A stretch of DNA of 64,000 nt from an uncultured delta proteobacterium. GTDB lineage: Bacteria; Desulfobacterota; Syntrophia; Syntrophales; Smithellaceae. Positions within the stretch are counted from its first letter, which is position 1; each line of letters begins with the position of its first letter. A program made the translations under genes and the position numbers. Below the pieces are notes generated by a model. It was not told where the DNA came from, did not search any database, and worked only from the letters and a program-made list of their open reading frames with translations. The DNA is taken from positions 64,001-128,000 of the forward strand of contig CAVWEH010000001.1 in the NCBI GenBank assembly GCA_963753975.1, read 5' to 3'. Shown piece after piece: positions 44,423 to 59,722 of the stretch.

Positions 44423-45886
44423 ATGATAGATATCAAATCGAAATCGTTATTACGTAAATTTTCCATTATATTTGTCGGAGTTGCTTTAATCCCCTTCATT
44501 ATTCTTTTTTTTCTTCATTCACTCTATGATGAAAGTCACAGATTTATTCAAATATTGGATGCTCATTTCAGTTTGATAATAGGTATTATCGGAATAATCT
44601 CCATACTCGGTTTTTTTGGCATGCGCATGATGGTCAAAAAAATTATTTTATTAACAGAGACTGTAAGAGAAGCGGTAATAGATAAAAAAACAATGTTGGA
44701 ATTGGCGGAAGACGAAGGCGAGATAGGCGAATTAGCCAAATCATTTTTTTATGCTTTGAAGAGCGTTGACCAAAGAGAGCAACAACCTAAAGAAACAAAA
44801 AAAATAATATATGATGTTCTGAAGAAGGCGAGTGAGGTTCTTGCCGTAGTAAATAATTATGATAATTTAATTAACCTGGTATTGGAAACAACCACTGTTG
44901 CCTTAGGCGCAAAACAGGGTGCGTTGTTTTCTGCCTTGGAAACAACCGCTGACGCATCAGGTGCACAGCAGGGTGCATTGTTCCCTGCCGAGGACAACCG
45001 CTATACATTAAAAGCATGGGTAGGCAATCATAATGTCACGCCGGAACATGTTATGGAAACTGCACAATCCTATCTTGATCAGGTGGCAAGCCATAAGAGG
45101 CCCTTTTTAATAACTGCAAAAGAAAAAAACAAGCAATCGGATAAATTACTTATCCCGCCTTTAGTGTTTTCACCTTTAATTTATAGTGAAAAATTATTGG
45201 GAGTGCTTTGTTTTTGTGGAAATGGTTATTGGAATAAATTTTCTAATGACCATATGGTCGTTGTGTTGAATTTGAGTCATCAACTTGCTGTTTCTCTGGA
45301 AAATGCAAAAATAAATAAAGATTCAGATCAAACTTACTTCGAAACGCTGGCAGCTCTGGCTCTGGCGACGGAGGCAAGAGATCCTTATTCCCGGGGGCAT
45401 TCCGGTCGTGTCGGCAAGACTGCGCAAAAAATCGGGGAATTAATGGGTTTGCCGGCGGAAGATATTAAAGCTCTGCGGGATGCTTCTATGTTACATGATA
45501 TCGGCAAGATAGCAATTATGCACGATATATTTATCAAGCAAGGTAAGGTCAGTGAAGAAGAGAAATATGTCATGAGAAATCATCCCGTCATTGGCGAGAG
45601 TATTGTATCGCACCTGCAGACATATAAGCATATTTTGGATCCTATCAGGCATCATCATGAACAACTCGACGGAAGTGGATATCCCGACGGCCTTAAAAAC
45701 GGGGAGATATCAACGATCACGAGTATTCTGACCATTGCCGATCTATTCGATATTTTTATGGAGAATCGCTCCTATAGATCAGGAATGAATCTTGAAGATG
45801 CGATGAAAGAACTCGATAATCTCGTTATAGCCGGAAAAATAGATAAAGATGTAGTGGATAGTCTTTATCATATCTATTATTCATAA
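44423..45886 (+). CDS. Membrane-anchored HAMP/GAF/HD-GYP phosphodiesterase
   Basis: Two TMs, GEIGEL, ARDPYSRGHS, LHDIGK, HHEQLDGSGYPDGL. Confidence 0.92.
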   Translation: MIDIKSKSLLRKFSIIFVGVALIPFIILFFLHSLYDESHRFIQILDAHFSLIIGIIGIISILGFFGMRMMVKKIILLTETVREAVIDKKTMLELAEDEGEIGELAKSFFYALKSVDQREQQPKETKKIIYDVLKKASEVLAVVNNYDNLINLVLETTTVALGAKQGALFSALETTADASGAQQGALFPAEDNRYTLKAWVGNHNVTPEHVMETAQSYLDQVASHKRPFLITAKEKNKQSDKLLIPPLVFSPLIYSEKLLGVLCFCGNGYWNKFSNDHMVVVLNLSHQLAVSLENAKINKDSDQTYFETLAALALATEARDPYSRGHSGRVGKTAQKIGELMGLPAEDIKALRDASMLHDIGKIAIMHDIFIKQGKVSEEEKYVMRNHPVIGESIVSHLQTYKHILDPIRHHHEQLDGSGYPDGLKNGEISTITSILTIADLFDIFMENRSYRSGMNLEDAMKELDNLVIAGKIDKDVVDSLYHIYYS

Positions 45887-46107
45887 GGAAAGCGGGGAAC
45901 AAATATCGGGGACTTTTCTTAATGCTTACAATCTTCCAACACTTTTAATTATCCTACACCGTTTATTTGCAGGCGATGCAGCAAGCACTTCTTCCTGCAA
46001 TCCATAAATCGTCAACCTCGACGAAAATGCAGGGCTTCAAACGATAATCATTAGTAATTACGGAAAGCAATCACGCGGGAAAAACATCACGGCCTCCTGA
46101 CCTTTCT

Positions 46108-46578
46108 GTGGGTCTGTTATTTTCCGGTGCGATCCTTTTCATCATCTTTCTTGCACTTTTGTCCGACAAACTTCTGAGCTTACACGCCTGGCCGCCAACA
46201 CCTACAAACCTTGTTCTGTCCATACCCCTGCTTGCGGCCGGAATCTGGCTTTGGCTACGGTCTGTATTGACATTTTTCACATCCAGAGGTACACCAGTGC
46301 CCCTGAGCCCGCCCCCAAAGCTTGTCGACACCGGACCTTATGCCTACTCGAGAAACCCCATGCTCTCTGGGCTCTTTCTTATGCTCTTCGGCATCGGCTT
46401 TCTGTCTCAGTCGGTCTCGCTGGTCATCATATATACGCCACTATTTATAATGATTGCCTTTCTTGAATTCAAGATGATCGAAGAGCCGGAACTGGAAAAA
46501 CGTATTGGCGCATCATATGTAGAATACGGGAAAAAGGTCTCCATGTTCTTCCCGTATCCGGGTCACGGCAAACACTGA
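46108..46578 (+). CDS. Isoprenylcysteine carboxyl methyltransferase/PEMT family protein (start uncertain)
   Basis: GTPVP..PPKLV..GPYAYSRNPM, EEPEL..R. Confidence 0.8.
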   Translation: MGLLFSGAILFIIFLALLSDKLLSLHAWPPTPTNLVLSIPLLAAGIWLWLRSVLTFFTSRGTPVPLSPPPKLVDTGPYAYSRNPMLSGLFLMLFGIGFLSQSVSLVIIYTPLFIMIAFLEFKMIEEPELEKRIGASYVEYGKKVSMFFPYPGHGKH

Positions 46579-46674
46579 TTTTCTTTAAAGGACTCTAACT
46601 CCCTTTAAGGAAAGAAAATTTTAACCAAAAAATACTGAAAGAGAATATACTTATTCTAACGGAGGACCAAAACA

Positions 46675-46914
46675 ATGAAAAACAAAAAAGGTATCTCGAA
46701 GTTAGTTTTGTTTGTGATAATCGTAATAATCATAGTTGCTGCGATTTACTGGGCCAAGTATTTTGCCAAACCAATGGCCACAGTTATGATGGGCGGTGCA
46801 GAGCAAGCCCAGCCGGCTATTGAAAAAGCCAAACAGTCCAGGGATGCGATGAACAGAGTCACTCAAGCCACCGAAGAAACGGCGAGAAAAGCAAGCGAAG
46901 ATGCGGAGAAGTAG
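46675..46914 (+). CDS. Small membrane-anchored protein with prepilin-like N-terminus
   Basis: GGAGG RBS; MKNKKG-ISK then a hydrophobic helix. Confidence 0.65.
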   Translation: MKNKKGISKLVLFVIIVIIIVAAIYWAKYFAKPMATVMMGGAEQAQPAIEKAKQSRDAMNRVTQATEETARKASEDAEK

Positions 46915-47167
46915 CGGGACGGTATTAATTTTTCAAGGTAATGATAAATATGGCCTAGCCTTTTATAGTAAAAATTGTTTCGATATTTTTAAGAAAAAGC
47001 GCATAATCTTAGAAATATTCTTTCTAGCATTTAGAAACTCGGCCATGCTCAAATTTGTTAAGCAGCTGGGCTTTGTAGAAACTAATATCCCTGACGATCC
47101 GTCAATTCTGCTGGTTACAAAAAACATCTGATGGATTAGCAGGATTAACTTTAATCGGAGGAAATGC

Positions 47168-47356
47168 ATGAAAGAGAAATGTATGGGAAATTGGCCGGGA
47201 ATGGGGCTGATCTTGGCGGGTGCGATTGTTTTTTTGGTGGGGGTGACCATCATATTATTTAAAGAGTTTAATATTCCGCGTTACTGGATACCGGCAGTCA
47301 TTGGAGTAGTGCTCATAGTGGCCGGAGTCATTGTATACAGAATAAAGCGCGTGTGA
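47168..47356 (+). CDS. Small two-TM hypothetical protein
   Basis: GGAGG RBS, two hydrophobic helices. Confidence 0.6.
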   Translation: MKEKCMGNWPGMGLILAGAIVFLVGVTIILFKEFNIPRYWIPAVIGVVLIVAGVIVYRIKRV

Positions 47357-47385
47357 TCAGCAGGAATCTTGTGGTGCTGATGGGG

Positions 47386-47493
47386 ATGGTTATCATAAAG
47401 GACACGGGGCATGCCCCGATGATGGAGAAGCCTGAAGAAACAGCGAAGGCCTATCTAAGTTTCCTGCAAGAAGAAAAAATGAATATTTTTTAG
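47386..47493 (+). pseudogene. Alpha/beta hydrolase C-terminal remnant
   Basis: MVIIKDTGHAPMMEKPEETAKAYLSFL carries the GHxPxxExP catalytic-His motif; rest of gene absent. Confidence 0.6.
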
Positions 47494-47778
47494 GTGATTG
47501 CAAATTATGAGACTTGGTTAAAGGCAAGGGCATCTCGTAAATAAATTATTGAAATATAAAGAAATATGCCTTGACTTTGCATAAAGAGCAGAGTATGTTC
47601 CCTGCATATCTTGTACCTTGCTATGGTCTTAAGTCAGTGCGGTACAGTTAAAGTTGAGTTATGACAATTTGAAGTGCAAAGGCGGCCACCGTGCTCTTTA
47701 GAGTCTCGGTGGCTTTTTTATTTCTGTCATATTGGTAATTCGACTTTTGGTAAATTTTAAGAAAGGAGGATACTAATT

Positions 47779-47979
47779 ATGTCAGAAGGTAAAGTAAAAT
47801 GGTTTAACGAGAGTAAAGGTTTTGGATTTATCGAGAAGAGTGACGGTGGGGACATTTTCGTCCATTTCAGCGCCATTCAAGCCAGTGGATTCAAGACCTT
47901 AACCGAAGGCCAGGCTGTAAGTTTCGATATTGTTCAGGGCAATAAAGGTCCTGCAGCAGAAAACGTGAAACCCTGCTAA
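47779..47979 (+). CDS. csp: Cold-shock protein
   Basis: [32 protein letters not shown]. Confidence 0.97.
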
Positions 47980-48094
47980 TTAAACCTGGGTAAAAGAAGA
48001 GGCGCTCCATCAACGATATTGTATTGTGGAGCGCCTCTCCATTTTCAGCATATTCTGTAACGTTTGAAAGAAAGACAAAAAGAGGAGTTTAAAA

Positions 48095-48274
48095 ATGGCA
48101 AAGTCCATGTACAACTTTGGCAAACAGGCCAAAGAAAAAGCAAGGCAGCAGAAACAAATGGATAAGACTGCAAAGCGCATGCTGGCGAAACAGCGGAAAG
48201 CTGATATAAAAACGCACACTCCGAACGCAGGCTCAGATATAGCTGAACCGCGAACCAGTGGAGGAGATCGTTAA
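48095..48274 (+). CDS. Small basic protein, 59 aa (absent from ORF track)
   Basis: GAGGAG RBS; MAKSMYNFGKQAKEKARQQKQMDK... Confidence 0.65.
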   Translation: MAKSMYNFGKQAKEKARQQKQMDKTAKRMLAKQRKADIKTHTPNAGSDIAEPRTSGGDR

Positions 48275-48330
48275 AGACACAGCATAACTTTTGTTTGTTT
48301 TCAGGATTGTAAACCTGAAGGTGAGTAGAA

Positions 48331-48738
48331 ATGACTGAAGATATTTTAGACTACTGGACCAGACTTATAAAGACAATTTTCCCGGAGAACGCCTGGATAA
48401 CTTCTCGTTTTTTCAAAAATGATTGTTTAATAAATATCGATTGGAATGTAAAAAATGATCCGAAGAACCCAAACAAGCGTTCCAAAAGGATTGAGATAAT
48501 AATAAAAAGCGATGCACTGGAAAATTATCTCGACAAGAACAAGAAAGATCGCGAATTATCCGACATCGTGCTGAAAGAATTTATTCACGAACAGTATAAC
48601 CATTTTAGTTCCAATTATGATATTAGCACCAGCCAATATGTTCCGAAGGAAAAGTGGTTAATCTCCCGGGATGTACTTAATTGCAAGCCTTCATTTGACA
48701 CACCCCCTATAGATCAAGTCAAATCAATTTATCAATAA
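48331..48738 (+). CDS. Hypothetical protein
   Basis: 135-aa ORF with GGTGAG RBS. Confidence 0.65.
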   Translation: MTEDILDYWTRLIKTIFPENAWITSRFFKNDCLINIDWNVKNDPKNPNKRSKRIEIIIKSDALENYLDKNKKDRELSDIVLKEFIHEQYNHFSSNYDISTSQYVPKEKWLISRDVLNCKPSFDTPPIDQVKSIYQ

Positions 48739-48954
48739 CAATGGTGATGATGAAGAGCGCGGACTTCTGCTCGAATTCATTGAAATCTGCCCTTAATAAA
48801 TTCATCCGATGTCGTTGACATCTCCCCAATTCAGGCATATATAAACATGAAAAGTATCAAATTCATTGTTTCGGGCTTGGATAATGTTTAGGCGGAGTGT
48901 TATCAAAGCTTTCCGACAAATACTCTTAACTCGTTCGCAGAAAGGAGTCTTACA

Positions 48955-49110
48955 ATGAACCTACCTAAGAATCTCGGCATACTCTTGTTGGGTATCTGGC
49001 TTATCATCTATGGGCTGATGCAACTGCTGAGTCTCAGTTTTTACGGACTCGGTGTACTCATGGCCATCTTCGCAATCGTTATAGGTATTTTGCTCATAAT
49101 GAAGCGATAG
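48955..49110 (+). CDS. Small two-TM protein, 51 aa (absent from ORF track)
   Basis: AAAGGAG RBS; MNLPKNLGILLLGIWLIIYGLMQLLSLSFYGLGVLMAIFAIVIGILLIMKR. Confidence 0.75.
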   Translation: MNLPKNLGILLLGIWLIIYGLMQLLSLSFYGLGVLMAIFAIVIGILLIMKR

Positions 49111-49286
49111 GCCGGAAGGATATCGGCGTCCTTTGAAATATAGGGGAATAGGACGGTCGTCCCGTTTATTTCTTCTGTGCAGAAGCTTAAAAACCACACG
49201 TTGCATGTTGCAACGGCAAAAGCCCAGTCCCAAGAAAAAGACAAAAAAGGTGAATTAAGTGTTATGTCCCCCGAATTCACGTTGAC

Positions 49287-50099
49287 CTAATAATTAGTAA
49301 TAACTAATTCATTTACTTTATGCCTGAAAGACTTACATGTGATCCATCTAGTTACCGGCAATATCGATATGTTCCAACCTTTATACAGATTATGTATTAG
49401 AGGGATATCCGCATTAGAAATCATAACTCGACAACCCAGTCGGCTCATTTGATTAGCTATTGCAGATACATTTATTTGATCTTCTTTGCCAAATCTTTCT
49501 TTAGTATAATGAGTAAAAAAGGAAGTTCCATTAAGGGGAGGGTATGGGGGGTCTAGATATACAAAATCTCCTTTCTTCACCTTTATTAATATCTTTTCAT
49601 AAGAGCATGCATTGAGCTTTGCCCTTTTAAGCAATGCGCTGACTGATCTCAGTGTTTCAAGAGATGGGAAAGTTGGTTTTTCTTTCTTCCCGAAAGGAAC
49701 ATTATAGAAGCCACTGCTATTTACACGGAATATGCCATTATACGATGTCTTATTGAGATATATAAAACGAGCTGCTTGTTTAATTGATTTCTGTGATTTA
49801 TTGTAATCTTCTCTGACTTTATAATACTCTACTGAATTAGTGTGCTCGATCAATCTTTTGAGGTAGAATGCCACTTTATCTGGATAGTCGCGTACCATTT
49901 GATAGCACTCTACAAGGTGACTATTGGAATCAGACAAAATAGCTTTACTTGGTGATAGAGCAAAAAAAATGGATCCCCCACCTAAAAACGGTTCCCAATA
50001 AGTATATTCCTTCAAGTCTTTGGGTAGATATGTAATAAGACGTTTGGCATGATGGACTTTTCCTCCAGCCCAGCTCAGAAAAGCTTGCAATTCTGTCAC
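49287..50099 (-). CDS. Dam-family (D12 class) DNA adenine methyltransferase
   Basis: WAGGK, EPFLGGGS, YLNKTSYNG, YLDPPY, MISN, ELVITNY. Confidence 0.95.
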   Translation of the reverse strand: MTELQAFLSWAGGKVHHAKRLITYLPKDLKEYTYWEPFLGGGSIFFALSPSKAILSDSNSHLVECYQMVRDYPDKVAFYLKRLIEHTNSVEYYKVREDYNKSQKSIKQAARFIYLNKTSYNGIFRVNSSGFYNVPFGKKEKPTFPSLETLRSVSALLKRAKLNACSYEKILIKVKKGDFVYLDPPYPPLNGTSFFTHYTKERFGKEDQINVSAIANQMSRLGCRVMISNADIPLIHNLYKGWNISILPVTRWITCKSFRHKVNELVITNY

Positions 50100-50140
50100 C
50101 TTAATAATTTAACATTTAATATTTTTTATATATTTTACGA

Positions 50141-52553
50141 TCATTCTTCATCCTGAATTCCAAGAGCTTTATTTCTCCTTTGGTAAAATTCGTATTTGAT
50201 GAACTTCATAAACTCATAATCCTGTTCATCGTATGCACGAGTAGGACTTGGATGAGCAGGTATTTTCCTTATTTCATTAAACGTCTTCATCCAATCCAGA
50301 TAGTATGTTTTACCCTTTTCACCAGATAACGGTATGTTAAATACATTTTCAAAGAGGGGCCAATTATTCTTTTGTCTGATAATGTGCATTAAATCTAATA
50401 TGTCAAGATAAGCCTCTTTGGGGAGTTTTTTGTCTGCAGTAGCAGCGAGTTGTCGTTTGTATGCTTCTTCCTTTGTTGGCACACTTTCAATCCCTTTTTC
50501 CCAATAAGCTTTTTCTCCAGACTTCTCTTCCGTAATTCCATAATGTTTTTTTAAGACATCAATCACATATACCAATATATCTTGAGATAACTTGATAACA
50601 TCTTTATGAGTTTGGCTGATGCGTTCATCAGATCTCTGTACAAGTCTCTGCTTAAATTCCTCCGATCCAAAATCATTGAAGTCTTTATTAATTATCTCGC
50701 ATAGGTTGTCGGTATATTCTTTGACACCACCTTCTCCAAATTTTCGTCCAAATTTTTCATAAATATCTGCATCTGATGCAGTCTTTATAAAACTCAATAC
50801 TGATTTAGCAATTTTCTCTATATGGTTAATCAATATTTCTTCGTTAGTTGTAGGGGGATCGATGACTTGTTTAAGCTCCAAGTATCTAATAATTTCTGTG
50901 AGCAACATAAGGTGGGCTCTGATTCCAGGATTTGTAGATATATAGCCACTTCGAGCTGCTTCCCAACGATTTGGATTCGAATCTCTAATTTTTAGGAAGT
51001 ACGAATTTAAAACGCTACGGGCGCGCATAATTGTTTTTTCATCTGTTTCAGCGCTTAAAGCGCCCGTTGCGAAATTTTTATGGATTCTGACGCCCTAAAA
51101 GACCAGATCTTGTTAATCCATTTACTATTTCAGGAATAGTCAAACTCTGGTTCTCCTTAGCAACAACACCCTGAATGGCAAAACGTTGGAAGAGTGGACT
51201 TGTGGGGTCACTGTTCAGAGATTTTACTAAGCGAGATGATAATGCCGCTAATCGTTCTTTTGGATCGGCTGAACCCCATTTGAGGTCAGATTGTAATGAT
51301 ACTATAACGCTTCTCTGTACCGTTTTTTGCTTCTGATTAATTGTAATAAACAAATCTGCTTCTGTTTTTATGCCCATCTCTTCAAATGCTATTATAGCTA
51401 TACTCTGGTTCCAGAATTTATCTTCCTCAAGGTGAGAATAACCATAAAGCCTATGCTGACCATCTATAATCCATGCTGACTTATATTTGTTTGGGAGATA
51501 AAGCCAACCAAACTTTATTTTAGGGTCAGTGTTCTCTTTATTTGGTAGTAAATCAAATCGACATTTTTCTGTAAAATTGAGGAGCAAGTTTGTTGGAAAA
51601 TAACCACCTTTTTCAATAAATTTACCAATATCCTTTATTCGATTTGGTGATATCATTCTTTGGTATGCTGGCCGGCCATCGGGGTGATTTAATGCTTGAT
51701 GGTTAATGAATGCTATTTTTAGTAGAACTCGGGGTGTAGTAATAAAGCTATAAAATTTATGCCCTCCCAAACTACCTCGTTTTGCCGCCACTTTTTCATT
51801 TGAGAGACCCGGAATTACTTGACCTTGAAGAAATTCTGAAAGGAATTGGAAACGTCCAGCGGGTCCCATATGTCGAATAAACGAATCAAAGTATTGGAAC
51901 TCATTTTCAGTCACGATCCTGACATTTATTGCAGAAGCCCTTTCAATATCGGGATCAGACCAGATAATATTATTTGTAACATAGAGCCATATAATTTTAG
52001 GCTTGAAATCATGTCCATAATGTTTACAAATTGAATCAGCCAAGTATTTTTGAAGTGATTCAGTTTCGTGCAAATCTTTTTGTAAAGATCTCCTGCCTCG
52101 CACCTCCTTTGATTTGCATTCGGCTACAATAACTGTTTCATCATCCTTTGCAAATACGTCTATTTTTTTTTCACCAAGAGTCCCATCACGTCTTTTAAAA
52201 CGTATTGTAAAGTTATTTCCACCAAGATGGGGATATCCCATTCTATAAAATAAACACCATACTTGATCTTCAAGAAGAGTATTATGTAATTTTAATCGTT
52301 TAAGACGAACTTTTTTGTTACCGCCTTTATGTACTTCCCACCCATCATCTTCGTATTGTTGTTGATCTGCAGGATGAATGATTTTATATACATAACTATC
52401 ACGGCGCTTGGTATAAGCTGACTTTAACTGAGCTTTATCTTTGATTAAAGGACATAAATTATCTTGAATAGGTCTTCTATCTGGATAATTTGAGAATGAT
52501 TGCGCAGCGAGAACCTTGGCTTTGTCCTTTGGTTTGCTACTTGCTGATGACAT
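50141..52553 (-). CDS. DGQHR (DndB-like) protein with N-terminal PD-(D/E)XK-like and C-terminal Swt1/HEPN-like domains; +1 frameshift near 51089
   Basis: IDVFAKDDETVIVAECK, YQRM, IIDGQHRL in 51078-52553; frame shifts to RIHKNFATGALSAETDEKTIMRAR and ends with EIRKIPAH (Rx4H). Confidence 0.85.
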
Positions 52554-53024
52554 AAGAACCTCCTTTTCTCAAATATCTTAGGATTAGGAAGGAGCATTTA
52601 AAAAAATTTTTTATATTGTCATCTTCATATACGCTTAGTCTACTGACTTTCTTGAATATGGTTTCTTTTGCGCCATCATTTATGTTCTTCATTGTAGGTA
52701 AATCCAACGTTCGGGATATATCAAACGCGTGCTTTTGCCAGATTATCAAAGAACGTGTTCCAGATCAGGTCTTGAAATAGAAGCTTTCCTGCTTGCAGTA
52801 GGCATTAAACTATCCAATTAATTGCGGATAATATTACAACTTCCAAAGAACAATGCAACTGTTATTAACAGTATCGTCACAGATGAAGGTGGCGCGTGGC
52901 AAAACGCTGGGCAGTGCCAGTTATTTCTTATTGCCCATTCATTTTAGTGATTTCCGTTTTTGTCTCCTCATTCAGAAATTTACATAATTGGTGTCTAGCG
53001 ATGTTCGGTGGCATTAATTTCCGG

Positions 53025-53372
53025 TTATTCGACAATTTTGAGTTTCAGAGTCTTCGCGGCATCTTCCAATGATCCAAGATTGACGACATCTTTGTATCCC
53101 AGTTTCTCCAGGGCTTCTTTGGCAATTTGCGCTCGATGTCCGGTTCTACAGTATACATAGATCCTCTGCGACTTATCTTGGACAACGTCGCCAATTTTTT
53201 CACCGATCTCTTTGTAGGGGATCCGGATGGCGCCATCAAGATGACCGAAATTCCACTCCCAGGCAGTTCTGACGTCAATAATGACAGGCTTGGCCGCGTC
53301 ACCGCCAAACGTAGTCGTTGCAAAACTGGCAATCATTATGATTATCAATGCCAGGCAAAGTATTTTTTTCAT
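53025..53372 (-). CDS. Exported rhodanese-like protein (PspE type)
   Basis: Signal peptide, IIDVRT..EW..GH..GA, YCRTGHRA. Confidence 0.9.
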   Translation of the reverse strand: MKKILCLALIIIMIASFATTTFGGDAAKPVIIDVRTAWEWNFGHLDGAIRIPYKEIGEKIGDVVQDKSQRIYVYCRTGHRAQIAKEALEKLGYKDVVNLGSLEDAAKTLKLKIVE

Positions 53373-53481
53373 GTCTCCCCCTTTTTTATGGCCGATAATT
53401 TTCTATTTAAAATATTGGATGAGTCAAACGGTATCTCTCTGACCCTCCCCCGGAAGGAGAAGAGTCAGAGAGATAATGAGT

Positions 53482-54867
53482 TTATTTCTTTTTGAATAAC
53501 ATATCCTGGAGGAGTTGTTTCCCCGCTTGTGTCGCGATACTGCCGGCGGCTTTTGTGACTACAGTGCTCAAGGACGCTAGCTGGGGTTGCACCAGCTTGG
53601 TATTGGTCTTTTTAGTGGTGCCGCCAACCTTTAGTTTCAGGTCGATCACGCCGTCTTTATTGAGCAGGGGCTCCATCGCCGCCTCAGCCAGTTTATTCGA
53701 ATCGGCGTATTTCTTTGCCTGCGGGCTCTTAATGGCCGCTTCTATTTTTTGGGCCAGCGATGCTTTGACGGCATCATTTATTTCCTTTTTCATCACCATA
53801 TCCATGTTCATGTCGAGCGCCTTCGAATCCGTATTGACCGCGCCGTCGAAGAGAAGCTTCGCCTCTTTGAGGTCGAGTCTGCCGTTCGTAAGCTCGGTCT
53901 TATTGTCTTTGTAGTGCACGTCGACACCGGTTTCTTTGGAGTCTTTCCACTGCTGTTTATCCTTCAAAAAGGAGATATATTGCCCCAGATAATCGCCCAG
54001 GAGAGGAATGGACGCCACGGAATTAAAAATCTGCAATCCGGTGATCTCGCCGTCGGGGACAGCTACATGTAAAATTACCTCGGGATCCAAATACCGTGTT
54101 TTCACATCAAAAGGAATTACCTTTCCCGTTGCATCCAATGTCAGGTCGAAATTCTGGACACTCCCTGTTTTCATGGGGCCGACAGTTTTCAAACCGAGGC
54201 CTATTTTTAATTTTACCTCGTCTTTCTTTTCCAAGTCTTTCGGGTCTATGTTGATATCGTAGGCCAGAGTGGTCAGCTTATAAACCTGAAATTTTTGATC
54301 GTACTCGCCGTCGTAGTAGTTGATGGTGCCGTTCTTGATGCCGATTTCTCCCACGGTAATGGCGATAGGTATATCATCGGCCGTAATGGGTTTTGCCGGT
54401 TCCTTGACTTCCGCTTTATCGACCGGCTGTTTCTTGGGCTTGATCAAATCGTCGCAGTTCAAAACGCCCTGCTTGCTTTTGGTCAGGTTGATGATGGGGC
54501 TGTACAAAACAAGTTCCTTAAGATCGAATTGTTTTCTTAGCAGGGGCAAAAGCCTGATTTTGAAGCGCAAAGATTCCATTCCGGTAAAGAGATCGCCTGC
54601 CGGAACGGGTTTGCCCTGAAGAGTTGCGAGTTCCTGAGGAGTCTTAAAATTGGAAATGGCGACTTTCTTTATCTCAATTCCCGAAACGATGGAGAAAATG
54701 CTGACATCGATTTTTTCGATATAGACCTGCCGGTGCAGTGCCTGGGAAATCTGTAACGCGATAAATTCCTTGTTCACTTTGATCATGATGATAATGCCGG
54801 CAATAACGACAAGAATTAAAATGGCCGCAACCAAAGAACCGATAGTGATAAGTATTTTTTTAAACAT
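53482..54867 (-). CDS. AsmA family protein
   Basis: N-terminal TM, 'LRFKIRLLPLL', 'IKNGTINYYD' beta-rich pattern. Confidence 0.8.
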   Translation of the reverse strand: MFKKILITIGSLVAAILILVVIAGIIIMIKVNKEFIALQISQALHRQVYIEKIDVSIFSIVSGIEIKKVAISNFKTPQELATLQGKPVPAGDLFTGMESLRFKIRLLPLLRKQFDLKELVLYSPIINLTKSKQGVLNCDDLIKPKKQPVDKAEVKEPAKPITADDIPIAITVGEIGIKNGTINYYDGEYDQKFQVYKLTTLAYDINIDPKDLEKKDEVKLKIGLGLKTVGPMKTGSVQNFDLTLDATGKVIPFDVKTRYLDPEVILHVAVPDGEITGLQIFNSVASIPLLGDYLGQYISFLKDKQQWKDSKETGVDVHYKDNKTELTNGRLDLKEAKLLFDGAVNTDSKALDMNMDMVMKKEINDAVKASLAQKIEAAIKSPQAKKYADSNKLAEAAMEPLLNKDGVIDLKLKVGGTTKKTNTKLVQPQLASLSTVVTKAAGSIATQAGKQLLQDMLFKKK

Positions 54868-54982
54868 AACTCTTACCGCCTTTCCTTAAAGTTCGAATAA
54901 ATACCAATTAAAAATTAAAATTTAATAAACGGCAGGTCATTTCCATCGCCTGCTATGCATATAGGGGAAAAAATACCGGATG

Positions 54983-55050
54983 TCAATCCCGCGACTTGGA
55001 ATTTCCCGGCTCCTGTAACCTAAAGGTCATCTGCGACCGGAGGTGTCTCC
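54983..55050. repeat. REP-like element (copy 5)
   Basis: tcaatcccgcgacttggaatttcccggctcc plus taacct.aaggtca module shared with other copies. Confidence 0.65.
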
Positions 55051-55248
55051 CTTGGTATGCGCAAATTTTGAAGAGCAAACTTTCAGCGGATAAGCATCAT
55101 ATTTGACTGACAATTTTTCTTGACACGCAATCGCACTTCTCCTATGCTTTATTAAAATAAAGCACAGCCGTATTTAATAAAATATTTGAAATTAAGATAA
55201 TATTGGTTGAAATTAATACAATTTTCATCGGCAGAGGTAAAGGCAGAG

Positions 55249-57480
55249 ATGGATATAAGGCAAAAATCTTTAGATGCACTTATCCTTATGAACTCAGCCA
55301 TAAAGAATGTGCGCCTCTATCCCCCTACCAGTGCTGCAATTATTAATACTATCGAAAAGCTTCATCTGGCTTTTTTGAACATGTTTGCCCTGGAAGCTCC
55401 GATAATCTTTGCGGAATCAGAGAAAAATCTTTTGATCTGTGGAAAACCATTAGACCAGAAAGACTTGGAAAAGCCACAGGTTACTACATTGCTGAACATC
55501 CTTCTCAATCTCGGTATTGAAAGCATCACTTTCGATATAGGGTTGGAAAAAGCGGAACTTGGTGTTTTTTTGGAGCTACTTTCAAAAAGGCCGGAGAGTG
55601 TAAAAAGCGAAGGCGATTTGCTCAAAATCATGGACGAAAATAATGTGCAGCATATTTACCTGAATCAAAAGGTTTATGTAGCCATGGACAAGAAACAGAA
55701 GATATTGTCCAGCCTTGATATTACCGATGATCAAATCACCCAGTTTTTTATGCAGATTCATCCGGAATTGGCAGGCGATGCTGACAAACTTCAAGAAATG
55801 ATGAGGGATCCGGAATGGTTATCGCAAACTTTCCAGACAGAGTTATCTCAGATGATGAGGCAAAAAGGAGCTTTATCCGCTGTTGTGCTTTCCGAAAATC
55901 TGGAGAAGATGATAGCTTTAATGGATAAAGTTGCCGGTTCGCTTGATGAGCAAGATCGCGACAAGGTATCCCGGCGCATCGGGAAGTTGATTACTTTCTT
56001 GGATTCCGACATAGTACAACAGCTAAATGTTCAGAATATTGAGCACCTTTTCGGCGGTATGCTGCTGCAATATCTTGCCGGTAAAATTACCGGGGATAAA
56101 CCTGTTAAAGCGCATATATCCAATGAAGGGGTATCCGTTAAAACTCAAATCCCGGAGAGTGGCGCCGCTCTGGAGACGACTTCCTTGCAAAATCAAATCC
56201 TTAATCTTAAAGAAAAACTTCGTTCTTCTCCGCAGGATGATCAGAAAGCCTTTTTGGATGCACCTTTAATGTTGGATTTACCCAATCTTTTCGAACAACT
56301 CGATGCTCAAAAAGAACACGAGACCATGGCGATAATTATCAACCGCCTGGTGGGCAATCTGTTCAGCAAAAATGCCGATGTGCGCGCTCAGGCGTCTACG
56401 GCGCTTGCCGATATATTTGCCGGCCTTTCTCACGAGCGGAAGAACAAACTGATCGAAAGCCTATCAACTCAATTGATTAACTGGATCAAAATAGAACCTT
56501 TGGCAACACGAGCCTACACGAAAATATGTAATAATTTGAAAGACCTTGTCCATGATTTTATTCGTGAAGGGCGTTTTGCCGAAGCAATCCCGATTTTGGA
56601 TGTTTTTAGTAATATTAGCGCCGGAATTTTGGAAAAGAATGATGAGGCGCAAGAAATATCTTCGGATATTATTCGGGCTCTGGCATCAGAAGAGCACCTT
56701 GCCATTCTTTTAAAAGCATTTAACGCCAAGAATTCAAGCAAACAGGTTGAATCAGGCAGGGTATTGGTTAGGCTTGACGACGATGCAATGAACCGTTTGC
56801 TGGATATTCTCCGGAACAAGGCCGATAGCGATGACCGCGTGCGCATTATGAAACTATTTATCGGAATTGGAAAGAGGGCTGTGCCGGTCATCAGGGATAG
56901 GATCAGTAAAACAGCACCCTGGTATTATTTGCGTAATCTTGCGTACATACTCGGCCATATCGGTGACGAATCGAGCGCCGGCGCGCTTCAGCCCCTTCTG
57001 CTGCATGAAAATAAACGGCTGCGGATGGAAGCCTTAAAAGGTATTTATCGGACAGGCGGGAAAGAAAGAGGGGCAATCCTGTTATCTGTTTTACCCCTTG
57101 CGGATGATCAATTCAAACTTAGCATTATTGAAACCCTGGGTAACGCGAAATGTGTTGACGCAGTACCCGAACTTCTATCTCTGCTAAAAAAACGGCGATT
57201 AGTAACCCCATCGTTGCGTGCTGATCAGGAAGAGAGAATCTGTGCCGCCCTTGGCTCCATTGGATCTCCAGAGGCATTGCCCGCTCTTTCCCAAATAGCT
57301 AAAGCGGTATCTTTCTTCCACATCCGCTCTTATGCCGCAAAGGTTAAAATTGCGGCCGGTATAGCTGTGGCATCCATTAGAAAAAAGCAGGAAGAAACGG
57401 TGCAAGCAATGAAAGCTGCAGAAACAGTACAGGAAGCGAAAGCGGCAGAAGTAGTAGCTGAGGTCGGAGTCTCCAATTGA
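55249..57480 (+). CDS. HEAT-repeat domain protein (paralog A)
   Basis: VRLYPP N-terminal domain, WYYLRNLAYILG HEAT repeats. Confidence 0.85.
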   Translation: MDIRQKSLDALILMNSAIKNVRLYPPTSAAIINTIEKLHLAFLNMFALEAPIIFAESEKNLLICGKPLDQKDLEKPQVTTLLNILLNLGIESITFDIGLEKAELGVFLELLSKRPESVKSEGDLLKIMDENNVQHIYLNQKVYVAMDKKQKILSSLDITDDQITQFFMQIHPELAGDADKLQEMMRDPEWLSQTFQTELSQMMRQKGALSAVVLSENLEKMIALMDKVAGSLDEQDRDKVSRRIGKLITFLDSDIVQQLNVQNIEHLFGGMLLQYLAGKITGDKPVKAHISNEGVSVKTQIPESGAALETTSLQNQILNLKEKLRSSPQDDQKAFLDAPLMLDLPNLFEQLDAQKEHETMAIIINRLVGNLFSKNADVRAQASTALADIFAGLSHERKNKLIESLSTQLINWIKIEPLATRAYTKICNNLKDLVHDFIREGRFAEAIPILDVFSNISAGILEKNDEAQEISSDIIRALASEEHLAILLKAFNAKNSSKQVESGRVLVRLDDDAMNRLLDILRNKADSDDRVRIMKLFIGIGKRAVPVIRDRISKTAPWYYLRNLAYILGHIGDESSAGALQPLLLHENKRLRMEALKGIYRTGGKERGAILLSVLPLADDQFKLSIIETLGNAKCVDAVPELLSLLKKRRLVTPSLRADQEERICAALGSIGSPEALPALSQIAKAVSFFHIRSYAAKVKIAAGIAVASIRKKQEETVQAMKAAETVQEAKAAEVVAEVGVSN

Positions 57481-57520: not shown

Positions 57521-59722
57521 ATGGATATAAATCAAAAATCTTTAGATGCACTTATCATTTTGAACACAGCCATAAAGAATGTGCGCCTCTATCCCCCTAC
57601 CAGTGCTGCAATTATTAATACTATCGAAAGGCTTCATCTGGCTTTTCTGGACATGTTTGCCCTGGAAGCTCCGATAATCTTCGCGGAATCAGAGAAAAAT
57701 CTTTTGATCTGTGGAAAACCATTAGACCAGAAAGACCAGGAAAGATTCCAGGTCACGGCATTACTGAACATCCTTCTCAGTTTTGGTATGAAGAGCATCA
57801 CTTTCGATATAGGGCTGGAAAAAGCGGAACTTAGTGCTTTTTTGGAGCTACTTTCAAGAAAGCCGGAAAGTGTAAAAAGCGAAGGCGGTTTGCTCAAAAT
57901 CATGGACGAAAATAATGTGCGGCATATTTACCTGGATCAAAAGGTTTATGTAACCATAGATAAAGATCAAAAAATCATTTCCAGCCTTGATATTACCGAT
58001 GATCAAATCACCCAGTTTTTTATGCAGACTCATCCGGAATTGGCAGGCGATGCTAAAAAACTTCAAGAAATGATGAAGGATCCGGAATGGTTATCGCAAA
58101 CTTTCCAAGCAGGGTTATCTCAGATGATGAGGCAAAAGGAAGCTTTATCCAATGTTGAGCTTTCCGAAAATCTGGAGAAGATGATAGCTTTAATGGATAA
58201 AGTTGCCGGTTCGCTTGACGAGAAAGATCGCGACAAGGTATCCCAGCACATCGGGGAGTCCATTGTTAGCGCAGACCATGATATGACTAAGCAGCTGACA
58301 ACTCAGAATATTGAGCACCTTTTCGGCGGCATGCTGCTGCAATATCTTGTCAGTGAACTCGGTGAGGTTAAATCTGTTGCGGCGCGTACATCAAACGCGG
58401 GTGTATCAGATGGTAAGCAAGGTGATGGTAGTGGAAGTGGAAGTGGCTTCACCGGAGGTGAGGGCTCTGCTGGTGCAGTTCGTCCGGGGAAAGATGATTA
58501 TCAAAGCCAGATGAATGCTCTTAAACAAATGCTCAAAGCGCAACTGAAAAGTGATGAAAAAGGTCTTTTGAATACATCTCTGATGTCAGTCCTGCCCAAA
58601 ATTATCGAACAGCTCATTGTTCAAAAAGAAGATGAGACTATGGAAACGATCACCAGCCGCCTGCTCAAAAATCTGTTGAGTGAAGACGTCGAAGTGCGCA
58701 ATCAGGCATCTAAAGGCCTGGCCGATATCTTTGAAACACTTCCTCTGCAGCGGAAAAACGAACTGATCGAAAGAATATCAGCAGCATTAATGAATTGGAT
58801 CAAATTGGAAACATTGACATCACCTGCCTATGTGAAAATCTGCAACAGCCTGCAGCAATTCGTGCAGGATCTTATCCGCAAGGGACGTTTTGGTGAAACA
58901 ATCCCGATTCTGGATGTTTTCAGCGATATTCATGCCGGTGTTTTGGAAAAGAATGTTACGATACGGGAAATATCTTCAGAGGTTATTAGAAATCTGGCAA
59001 CAGAAGAACATCAAGCTCTACTCTTTAAAGAATATCATAGCAATAAGCAAAACAAACAGGCCGAGGCGGGTAAGATATTGGTTAGATTTGGGGATTTTAT
59101 ATTGGAGCGCTTGCTCGATAATGTTCAAAAAGTTGCCGACAGTGACGAGCGTGTACGTATTATGCGTCTGATAATCGAAATGGGACAGAAAGCCGTACCA
59201 TTTGTCCGGAAACAGATCAGTAAAGATGCATCATGGTATTATTTACGCAATCTTGCGTATATACTCGGCCATATCGGTAATGAAGAGAGTGCCAATGCGC
59301 TGAAACCACTGCTGCTCCATGAAAACGAACGGTTGCGTATGGAAGCCTTGAAAAGTGTTTACCGGACAGGAGGAAAAGATAGAGGACAACTGCTATTGTC
59401 CGTTTTGCCCCAGGTAGATGATCAATTCAAGCGTAACATAATTGAAACGCTTGGTAACGCGAAATGTGTCGATGCTGTACCCGATCTTCTGAAGATGCTC
59501 AAAACCAGGTCAGCAATAGCCCCATCATTCCGGGCTGATCTGGAAGAGAAAATCTGTATTGCCCTTGGCGCCATCGGATCCCCTGAAGCGATACCGGCAC
59601 TTTCGGAAATCGCTGAATCAAAGTCTTTTTTACGAATCGGTAATTATCCCCAAAAAGTCAAAATTGCCGCCGGCATGGCGTTAATATCTATTAGAAAAAA
59701 ACAGCCGGAAATAGCAGAGTAG
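57521..59722 (+). CDS. HEAT-repeat domain protein (paralog B)
   Basis: Same architecture; near-identical 5' ~820 nt to paralog A. Confidence 0.85.
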   Translation: MDINQKSLDALIILNTAIKNVRLYPPTSAAIINTIERLHLAFLDMFALEAPIIFAESEKNLLICGKPLDQKDQERFQVTALLNILLSFGMKSITFDIGLEKAELSAFLELLSRKPESVKSEGGLLKIMDENNVRHIYLDQKVYVTIDKDQKIISSLDITDDQITQFFMQTHPELAGDAKKLQEMMKDPEWLSQTFQAGLSQMMRQKEALSNVELSENLEKMIALMDKVAGSLDEKDRDKVSQHIGESIVSADHDMTKQLTTQNIEHLFGGMLLQYLVSELGEVKSVAARTSNAGVSDGKQGDGSGSGSGFTGGEGSAGAVRPGKDDYQSQMNALKQMLKAQLKSDEKGLLNTSLMSVLPKIIEQLIVQKEDETMETITSRLLKNLLSEDVEVRNQASKGLADIFETLPLQRKNELIERISAALMNWIKLETLTSPAYVKICNSLQQFVQDLIRKGRFGETIPILDVFSDIHAGVLEKNVTIREISSEVIRNLATEEHQALLFKEYHSNKQNKQAEAGKILVRFGDFILERLLDNVQKVADSDERVRIMRLIIEMGQKAVPFVRKQISKDASWYYLRNLAYILGHIGNEESANALKPLLLHENERLRMEALKSVYRTGGKDRGQLLLSVLPQVDDQFKRNIIETLGNAKCVDAVPDLLKMLKTRSAIAPSFRADLEEKICIALGAIGSPEAIPALSEIAESKSFLRIGNYPQKVKIAAGMALISIRKKQPEIAE

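Follow-up and report, generated by a model that had tools for sequence, protein, structure and literature searches.

Paired ParB-fold/HEPN proteins and adenine methylases are a known kind of defence. One example is PD-lambda-5 of E. coli ECOR7, whose listed components are 'ParB/HEPN, methyltransferase'. Vassallo et al. validated it with a panel of phages in 2022, and they describe it as a compacted RM+Abi system (restriction-modification, RM, plus abortive infection) and needed a host with mrr deleted to clone it; by HHpred, protein A is assigned a ParBc domain (96.4%) and protein B a D12 methylase (99.9%) (available portions of PMC9519451, Tables S1-S3). Here we describe a two-gene cassette on the minus strand (49287-52553) of a 64,000-nucleotide (nt) stretch of contig CAVWEH010000001.1 from an uncultured member of the Smithellaceae (this whole stretch is called the window below). 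We favour, with moderate confidence, the reading that the cassette is a mobile two-gene RM-like defence pair of the ParB/HEPN plus methylase kind, in which a protein of ~800 amino acids is the weapon, and which is present here as an inactivated remnant. The grounds for an RM-like pair are the anatomy of this protein, called the effector hereafter, and its strict linkage to a methylase.

The cassette resembles PD-lambda-5 in that a ParB-fold and HEPN-type protein stands beside a D12-class adenine methylase in a two-gene unit. It differs in that PD-lambda-5A lacks the N-terminal PD-(D/E)XK domain of the cassette effector (the last HHpred match tabulated for PD-lambda-5A ends at residue 498), and in the ParB part, which is of the ParBc type in PD-lambda-5A and of the DGQHR type in the cassette. 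PD-Lambda-5_A models match neither the two effector fragments of the window (E<=0.1), nor 20 intact members of the effector family (E<=1), nor 12 shorter relatives (E<=0.01), and the two models, PDLC04016 and PDLC04017, have no match in the whole genome at E<=10. The window methylase matches PD-Lambda-5_B at 6.9e-12, the generic MTase_II model being far better at 5.8e-86. A link to PD-lambda-5A through the shorter relatives was considered and dropped: 0 of the 12 match its models, and many of them, beginning within the DpdB profile, are probably fragments of genes. No paper was found that describes or tests a nuclease-DGQHR-HEPN plus methylase family, the available parts of PMC10853773 and PMC11754643 included. 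The original prediction had called the system undescribed; this does not hold for the kind of system, which is known from PD-lambda-5 (as presented in the accessible part of PMC9519451); the effector family itself, however, matches no PD-Lambda-5_A model.

A second group of known systems joins a ParB-fold DGQ(Q/H)R domain to a nuclease in one polypeptide, as the effector does: DndI, SspE and GmrSD/BrxU, each with a DUF262 ParB-fold NTPase (nucleoside triphosphatase) fused to a DUF1524 HNH nuclease. DndI is a DGQQR ParB-fold ATPase with a nuclease, which cuts unmodified DNA and is freed from self DNA by ATP hydrolysis that the modification stimulates (PMC11662687, in its available part); the DGQQR and DGQHR motifs are related (PMC4619093). 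The nuclease of these proteins is of the HNH type, in contrast to the PD-(D/E)XK domain and the added HEPN domain of the effector, and their partner modification is phosphorothioation or phage hypermodification, whereas that of the cassette would be N6-methyladenine (m6A) made by a single methylase. Neither DUF262 nor DUF1524 was found in the window proteins (Pfam, E<=0.1) or in 20 members (E<=0.05).

The features of the cassette, all on the minus strand, are:

52113..52160, minus: PD-(D/E)XK catalytic motif D132...E145-C146-K147 (IDVFAKDDETVIVAECK), assigned by conservation and fold match
51450..51464, minus: DGQHR pentapeptide, amino acids 364-368, invariant in 113/113 aligned sequences
51078..52553, minus: 5' part of the effector gene, codons 1-491 and a premature TAA (from the list of open reading frames, ORFs), encoding the PD-(D/E)XK domain and the ParB-fold DGQHR core
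51085..51086, minus: site of a one-base insertion, one of two A's in CAGAATCC, which shifts the frame after codon 489
50141..51094, minus: 3' part of the effector gene, an open frame of 317 codons and a stop, encoding the C-terminal HEPN domain and, before it, the remainder of the DpdB/DndB-like helical region
50252..50278, minus: HEPN motif N273..R276-K-I-P-A-H281 (N759, R762 and H767 of the full-length protein), assigned by conservation
50100..50140, minus: spacer of 41 nt between effector and methylase, from ORF coordinates (effector stop at 50141, methylase start at 50099)
49287..50099, minus: Dam/DpnM-class N6-adenine methyltransferase, 270 amino acids, intact, assigned by profile matches
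49199..49215, minus: terminator-like hairpin with a T-run, 72 nt past the methylase stop, from a consensus scan only

The broken effector gene

The original prediction, made from the sequence of the window, had described an AT-rich two-gene unit with a 41-bp gap and a first protein of about 800 amino acids after repair, and each of these statements holds. The GC content of the cassette is 0.359, below that of the window (0.43) and of the genome (0.442), and the gap is the 41-nt spacer listed above. The two large frames of the effector gene share 17 nt (51078-51094) and are offset by one base; counted from its first ATG, the second is an ORF of 295 amino acids (50141-51028). Both frames are spanned by P0002, an intact protein of 803 amino acids from public metagenomes, which is 93% identical to the 491-codon frame and, over its residues 487-803, 91% identical without gaps to the 317-codon frame, the junction reading ...GRQ/IHKNF.... 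In a DNA alignment with three intact loci, the window carries one extra base within CAGAATCC. The P0002 match and this extra base relative to intact relatives lead us to conclude that one gene of ~800 codons is broken after codon 489.

The insertion separates the nuclease and the ParB core from the helical and HEPN half, and leaves the methylase intact. The extra base is either a true mutation or an assembly error, and unless it is the latter the window copy is probably non-working. A base-calling error in a methylated GATC was tried as an explanation and rejected: although removal of one A would give GATC, the site is absent from L066, the closest of the loci with DNA. In the genome as a whole GATC is mildly under-represented (observed/expected 0.79). 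Judged from sequence, the cassette in this genome is probably an inactivated remnant in which the nuclease gene is broken and the orphan methylase is predicted to be active, in which case the methylation should appear in the methylome.

Domains of the effector

The PD-(D/E)XK-like motif, the central DGQHR domain and the C-terminal Rx4H (RKIPAH) HEPN-like domain that had been read from the window are all supported by profiles, conservation and structural models. Conservation figures refer throughout to 113 aligned effector homologues; the whole-effector AlphaFold model is that of an intact homologue, built with the 113 aligned sequences (predicted local distance difference test score, pLDDT, 87.9; predicted template modelling score, pTM, 0.73), and the C-terminal model is that of the window's own 317-residue fragment (pLDDT 93.6).

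At the N-terminus, the motif IDV...AECK occupies amino acids 131-147 of the first frame; no homologue deviates at D137 or C146, and at least 90% retain D132, E139, E145 and K147. In a structure search with the model, residues 90-226 matched the nuclease AF1548 (1y88; Z 12.2, root-mean-square deviation (rmsd) 2.4, 118 residues aligned), and a longer segment, residues 30-241, aligned with the nuclease halves of VC1899, Cdn1, Can2 and Card1 (Z 9.7-10.7). FokI is matched at Z 8.0, the fold of the domain resembling the cleavage domains of FokI and BspD6I. Of 20 members searched with Pfam, 10 match Hjc and 6 match Card1_endonuc. The family profile, run against the sequences of solved structures, gave only two chance-level matches (E 0.55, ribosomal protein S16). 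Fold and motif together support the placement of this domain in the PD-(D/E)XK superfamily, as a predicted nuclease.

The central domain belongs to the DGQHR family, with scores above the curated cutoffs and the pentapeptide present: on the first fragment TIGR03187 reaches 2.3e-39 (135.8 bits, cutoff 58.85), amino acids 257-464 covering model positions 1-191 of 276, and Pfam DndB PF14072 reaches 3.3e-15 (56.4, cutoff 29.1). In the AlphaFold model, residues 258-411 align with proteins of the ParB fold at Z 7.0-7.7, namely ParB-CTPgS (7bnr, Z 7.7), PadC (6ryk, Z 7.7), Noc and KorB (7.0). All 20 of 20 intact members match the PADLOC profile of DpdB (best 2e-24) over residues ~230-580, the match ending at about residue 560-580, with about 300 of the 370 profile positions aligned. 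The effector shares a bona fide DGQHR domain with DndB and DpdB; DndB has itself been described as ParB-like plus HEPN (PMC3632139, available part).

The extent of this match to DpdB would also suit a protein that is no weapon at all, but a DndB/DpdB-like regulator or helper of methylation, and DndB is reported as a regulator of modification (in the portions of PMC4507180 and PMC10853773 at hand). We consider such a role very improbable. The effector scores far below the equivalog cutoffs for DndB (TIGR03233, 21.1 bits vs 328) and DpdB (NF041060, 56.8 vs 300) and, unlike both, has no dnd or dpd genes nearby and carries an extra nuclease domain at its N-terminus; a regulator would leave unexplained the conserved catalytic-type residues of the nuclease and HEPN domains as well as the decay of effectors beside persisting methylases (see below).

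In the C-terminal domain, where RKIPAH lies at amino acids 276-281 of the second frame, N759 and R762 are invariant and H767 is kept in at least 90% of the homologues. The last ~165 residues of the C-terminal model (~154-317) have the HEPN protein AbiF as their best match (8vz6; Z 8.0, rmsd 3.8, 135 aligned), with further matches to the Swt1 HEPN domain (4pqz, Z 7.0), Csm6, HEPN toxins, AbiA and the sacsin HEPN domain; at least 11 of the 50 structure-search matches listed are HEPN, Csm6, Swt1, AbiF or AbiA entries. The C-terminus of the whole-protein model matches Csm6 at Z 5.7. Among profiles, Pfam HEPN_Swt1 was found in 1 of 20 members (1.5e-4), PADLOC AbiD in 3 of 20 and PADLOC PDC-M34B in 4 members (down to 5.7e-7), and an Atlas lead is a cluster with HEPN_Swt1 on 31% of its members (score 0.89).

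The HEPN part also matches a stand-alone protein of ~185 amino acids from the PADLOC candidate system PDC-M34, and nuclease-free forms of 522-624 amino acids (P0211, P0149, P0240 and P0230) carry the DpdB-like part with the same HEPN domain. Judged by these forms and the PDC-M34B matches, the domains have been recombined into several architectures.

A HEPN domain on such a protein brings an abortive-infection sensor into consideration: a nucleotide or DNA cue made during infection would bind the DGQHR pocket and unleash the HEPN RNase and the DNase on the nucleic acids of the cell itself. The cue could be methylated nucleotides from an m6A-marked chromosome degraded by a phage, the methylase being either the source of the signal or a guard against autoactivation. 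HEPN domains are typical suicide effectors (accessible parts of PMC3710099 and PMC3632139), the 'RM+Abi' description of PD-lambda-5 (PMC9519451, same portions as above) points the same way, a 2026 preprint in its available part presents a defence system triggered by Dam-derived m6-dAMP (10.64898/2026.01.15.699771), and ParB-fold pockets bind nucleotides, as the ParB-CTPgS match recalls. However, the present analysis yielded no pointer to a small-molecule trigger, and a restriction-type DNase together with swapping among three methylase families (see below) fits self-marking of DNA more simply, which makes a sensor of this type improbable in our view.

Methylase linkage and proposed mode of action

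The second gene had been predicted to encode an N6-adenine methyltransferase, and it matches TIGR00571 (2e-76), Pfam D12 PF02086 (5.5e-56) and PADLOC MTase_II at the value given above; its DPPY motif lies at 49542-49553. Among proteins of solved structure it comes closest to DpnM (2dpm, 1.9e-56), followed by E. coli Dam (2.4e-43).

Of 7991 candidates scored in a word-indexed search with the effector, 2452 proteins reached E<=0.001, and nearly all of the best 120 of these 2452 relatives measure 770-819 amino acids. In contigs taken from one genome per species at least 598 stretches match the search patterns, and at least 531 of them encode a relative; the best 80 loci were analysed for their neighbourhood. 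With the window methylase as tblastn query, a match was found in 64 of the 80, directly downstream on the same strand in 62 (0-173 nt past the effector match) and directly upstream in 2. Among the 16 loci without a Dam-like match, 8 end less than 300 nt from the effector match, and the next gene is an MT-A70 methylase in 4 and a longer D12-class methylase in 4 (confirmed by Pfam on two of each); a contig-end locus, L028, has an MT-A70 gene directly upstream. Co-occurrence with Dam-like methylases had been named as a check on the original prediction, and the outcome is broader: among these best 80 loci, an N6-adenine methylase adjoins the effector on the same strand in 72 of 72 with downstream sequence, Dam-like in 64. 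Clustering of neighbour ORFs of at least 60 amino acids in the 80 loci gave no other conserved partner; the next clusters were opposite-strand shadow ORFs over the methylase gene and a helix-turn-helix family in 6 loci.

In a quick maximum-likelihood tree of 67 effectors (a further 13 rows were excluded, ten for being short or cut and three because of stops or frame changes), the type of methylase changes at least 7 times and the phyla are thoroughly mixed; by the tree and the locus titles, over a dozen phyla are represented in the family. Of the 80 loci, 67 have an intact effector, 8 an effector that is short or cut by contig ends and 5 a broken one. In 5 of these last 5 the methylase is still detected, the same pattern as in the window.

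The residues aligned to N120, R124, N126 and P134 of E. coli Dam, which we take to be residues of its recognition loop, are kept in 64 of 64 Dam-like partners, which fits a shared GATC-type site. By its sequence the window methylase belongs to a different, DpnM-like sub-lineage, being 31-40% identical to most Dam-like methylases of the cassettes, 66% to that of L066 and 54% to that of L059, and it may have a different target site.

Two distant relatives of the effector on plasmids, L084 3863-10115 (pNL1, NC_009426.1) and L085 3884-10094 (Agrobacterium plasmid NZ_CP072139.1), are 29-31% identical over 88% of the length. Their neighbours are a radical SAM protein, a GHKL/HSP90-like ATPase and a short protein with the DGQHR domain (TIGR03187, 1.7e-33). 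No methylase adjoins them, and they may represent another, undescribed module for DNA modification that is coupled to a weapon of this type. Saro_3948, listed as a ParB-HEPN fusion in the available part of PMC3710099, may be the pNL1 gene of L084.

A methylase that is always adjacent, a nuclease fold of the restriction type that resembles the cleavage domains of FokI and BspD6I, and recognition-loop residues whose conservation in all Dam-like partners would fit one shared site could also belong to an ordinary Type II RM system, with the effector as a site-specific PD-(D/E)XK endonuclease and its ParB-like and HEPN parts as scaffolds for binding or dimerisation only. The likeness extends to DpnII-type systems in particular, with a DpnM-class methylase, an adjoining nuclease of the PD-(D/E)XK fold and a mobile, patchy occurrence. 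Unlike such systems, the cassette encodes an effector with two more enzyme-like domains, for which sequence-specific cleavage is only putative, and which is more conserved than the methylases and unusually conserved for a restriction enzyme. Mere scaffolds would not be expected to keep DGQHR in 113 of 113 homologues or N..Rx4H invariant or at 90% and above, which is expected of active sites, and in related proteins the ParB-fold DGQQR domain is an NTPase on which defence depends (PMC11662687, same part as above). We regard an ordinary Type II system as unlikely.

The RM-like reading, with the three-domain effector as weapon, is the best account of the domains and the methylase linkage; the original prediction had likewise put it forward, but the copy in the window is broken and, barring an assembly error, probably does not work in this organism. 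Several observations weigh against it. Effectors are 41-93% identical to the window protein or P0002, more than most methylases are to the window's own, and classical restriction enzymes follow the opposite pattern, the enzyme being less conserved than the methylase. Apart from the generic DpdB and DndB models, no PADLOC model of a named system matches the effector. The flanks of the cassette hold housekeeping genes and are not a defence island. Residue 9 of the window methylase (50073-50075) is S, whereas 58 of 64 Dam-like methylases of the cassettes have K at this position, that of K9 in E. coli Dam. A search of public sequencing runs that might support the frameshift gave 10 runs, each with no more than 0.07 of the sampled words; none contains the stretch, and neither does any RNA run. 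Foldseek with the C-terminal model returned nothing at E<=1e-3, and the HEPN fold matches, at Z <=8, are middling for a helical bundle; the HEPN call therefore also rests on the N..Rx4H motif and on the HEPN_Swt1, PDC-M34B and Atlas matches.

The activities of the RM-like pair are inferred, as are its target site, the part played by m6A and the sequence in which events follow. The methylase would place m6A on host DNA, probably at GATC-type sites. The N-terminal PD-(D/E)XK domain would cut DNA, and the DGQHR ParB-fold domain would act as an NTP-driven DNA-binding switch between self and non-self. DndI offers the nearest precedent for the mechanism; if the effector works in the manner of DndI and SspE, NTP hydrolysis would be stimulated by the self mark, upon which the effector would leave host DNA, and unmarked invader DNA would be cut. 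The HEPN domain would provide a second, RNA-cutting output, combining restriction and an abortive back-up in one polypeptide. Nucleotide sensing by the DGQHR domain and an RNase or abortive output were also part of the original prediction and are putative here as well.

For a classical system it would be unusual to have the methylase replaced repeatedly next to so highly conserved an effector. We tentatively suggest, while thinking it rather unlikely, that the effector reads adenine methylation itself and no fixed sequence: as a ParB-like NTP-driven clamp that m6A unloads, it would persist on unmethylated DNA, cut there and, on assembling, trigger the HEPN RNase, and it could pair with any adenine methylase. 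An m6A-reading effector would explain the swapping of three methylase families beside it.

At least 531 species-representative genomes carry the cassette, and no PADLOC model names its effector. If the RM-like reading is true, the ParB-fold NTPase-nuclease principle, known for phosphorothioate (DndI, SspE) and for hypermodified phage DNA (GmrSD), would be extended to plain m6A; the effector would be a compact case of DNA restriction and RNase back-up in a single polypeptide, and might provide a methylation-sensitive nuclease of practical use.

Genomic setting

The distribution of the cassette is patchy. No match was found in 14 of 14 congeners, and a match was found in 1 of 24 genomes of the same family (several of these genomes being incomplete). 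The congeners match both flanks (45500-49126 and 52917-56500) and nothing of 49287-52553. Its absence from all 14 congeners and its low GC content indicate that the cassette was acquired horizontally. On viral contigs only 10 relatives of the effector were found, of which 4 are full-length with at least 38% identity.

The original prediction that no dndCDE, pbe or dpd genes and no separate restriction enzyme are adjacent was confirmed by Pfam: dnd, dpd and pbe genes are all missing from the 16 flanking ORFs (37.5-63.4 kb), and none of these ORFs encodes another restriction enzyme. The scan that gave the terminator-like hairpin past the methylase stop is weak, with 5 sites found and 3.0 expected in shuffles. 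An ORF of 135 amino acids on the plus strand (48331-48735) adjoins the cassette and has no Pfam match; it is not part of the inserted cassette, because its DNA is conserved in congeners (92% in G002).

Three stretches of 40-75 nt, at ~45979-46052, ~52917-52987 and ~55006-55050, match many places in the genome and in congeners. The second sits just beyond the upstream end of the cassette, and the three do not align as a common element. Further along, two tandem paralogous HEAT-repeat genes (55207-57477 and 57521-59719; 757 and 733 amino acids) have the same Pfam layout, and their DNA is 88% identical over ~900 nt.

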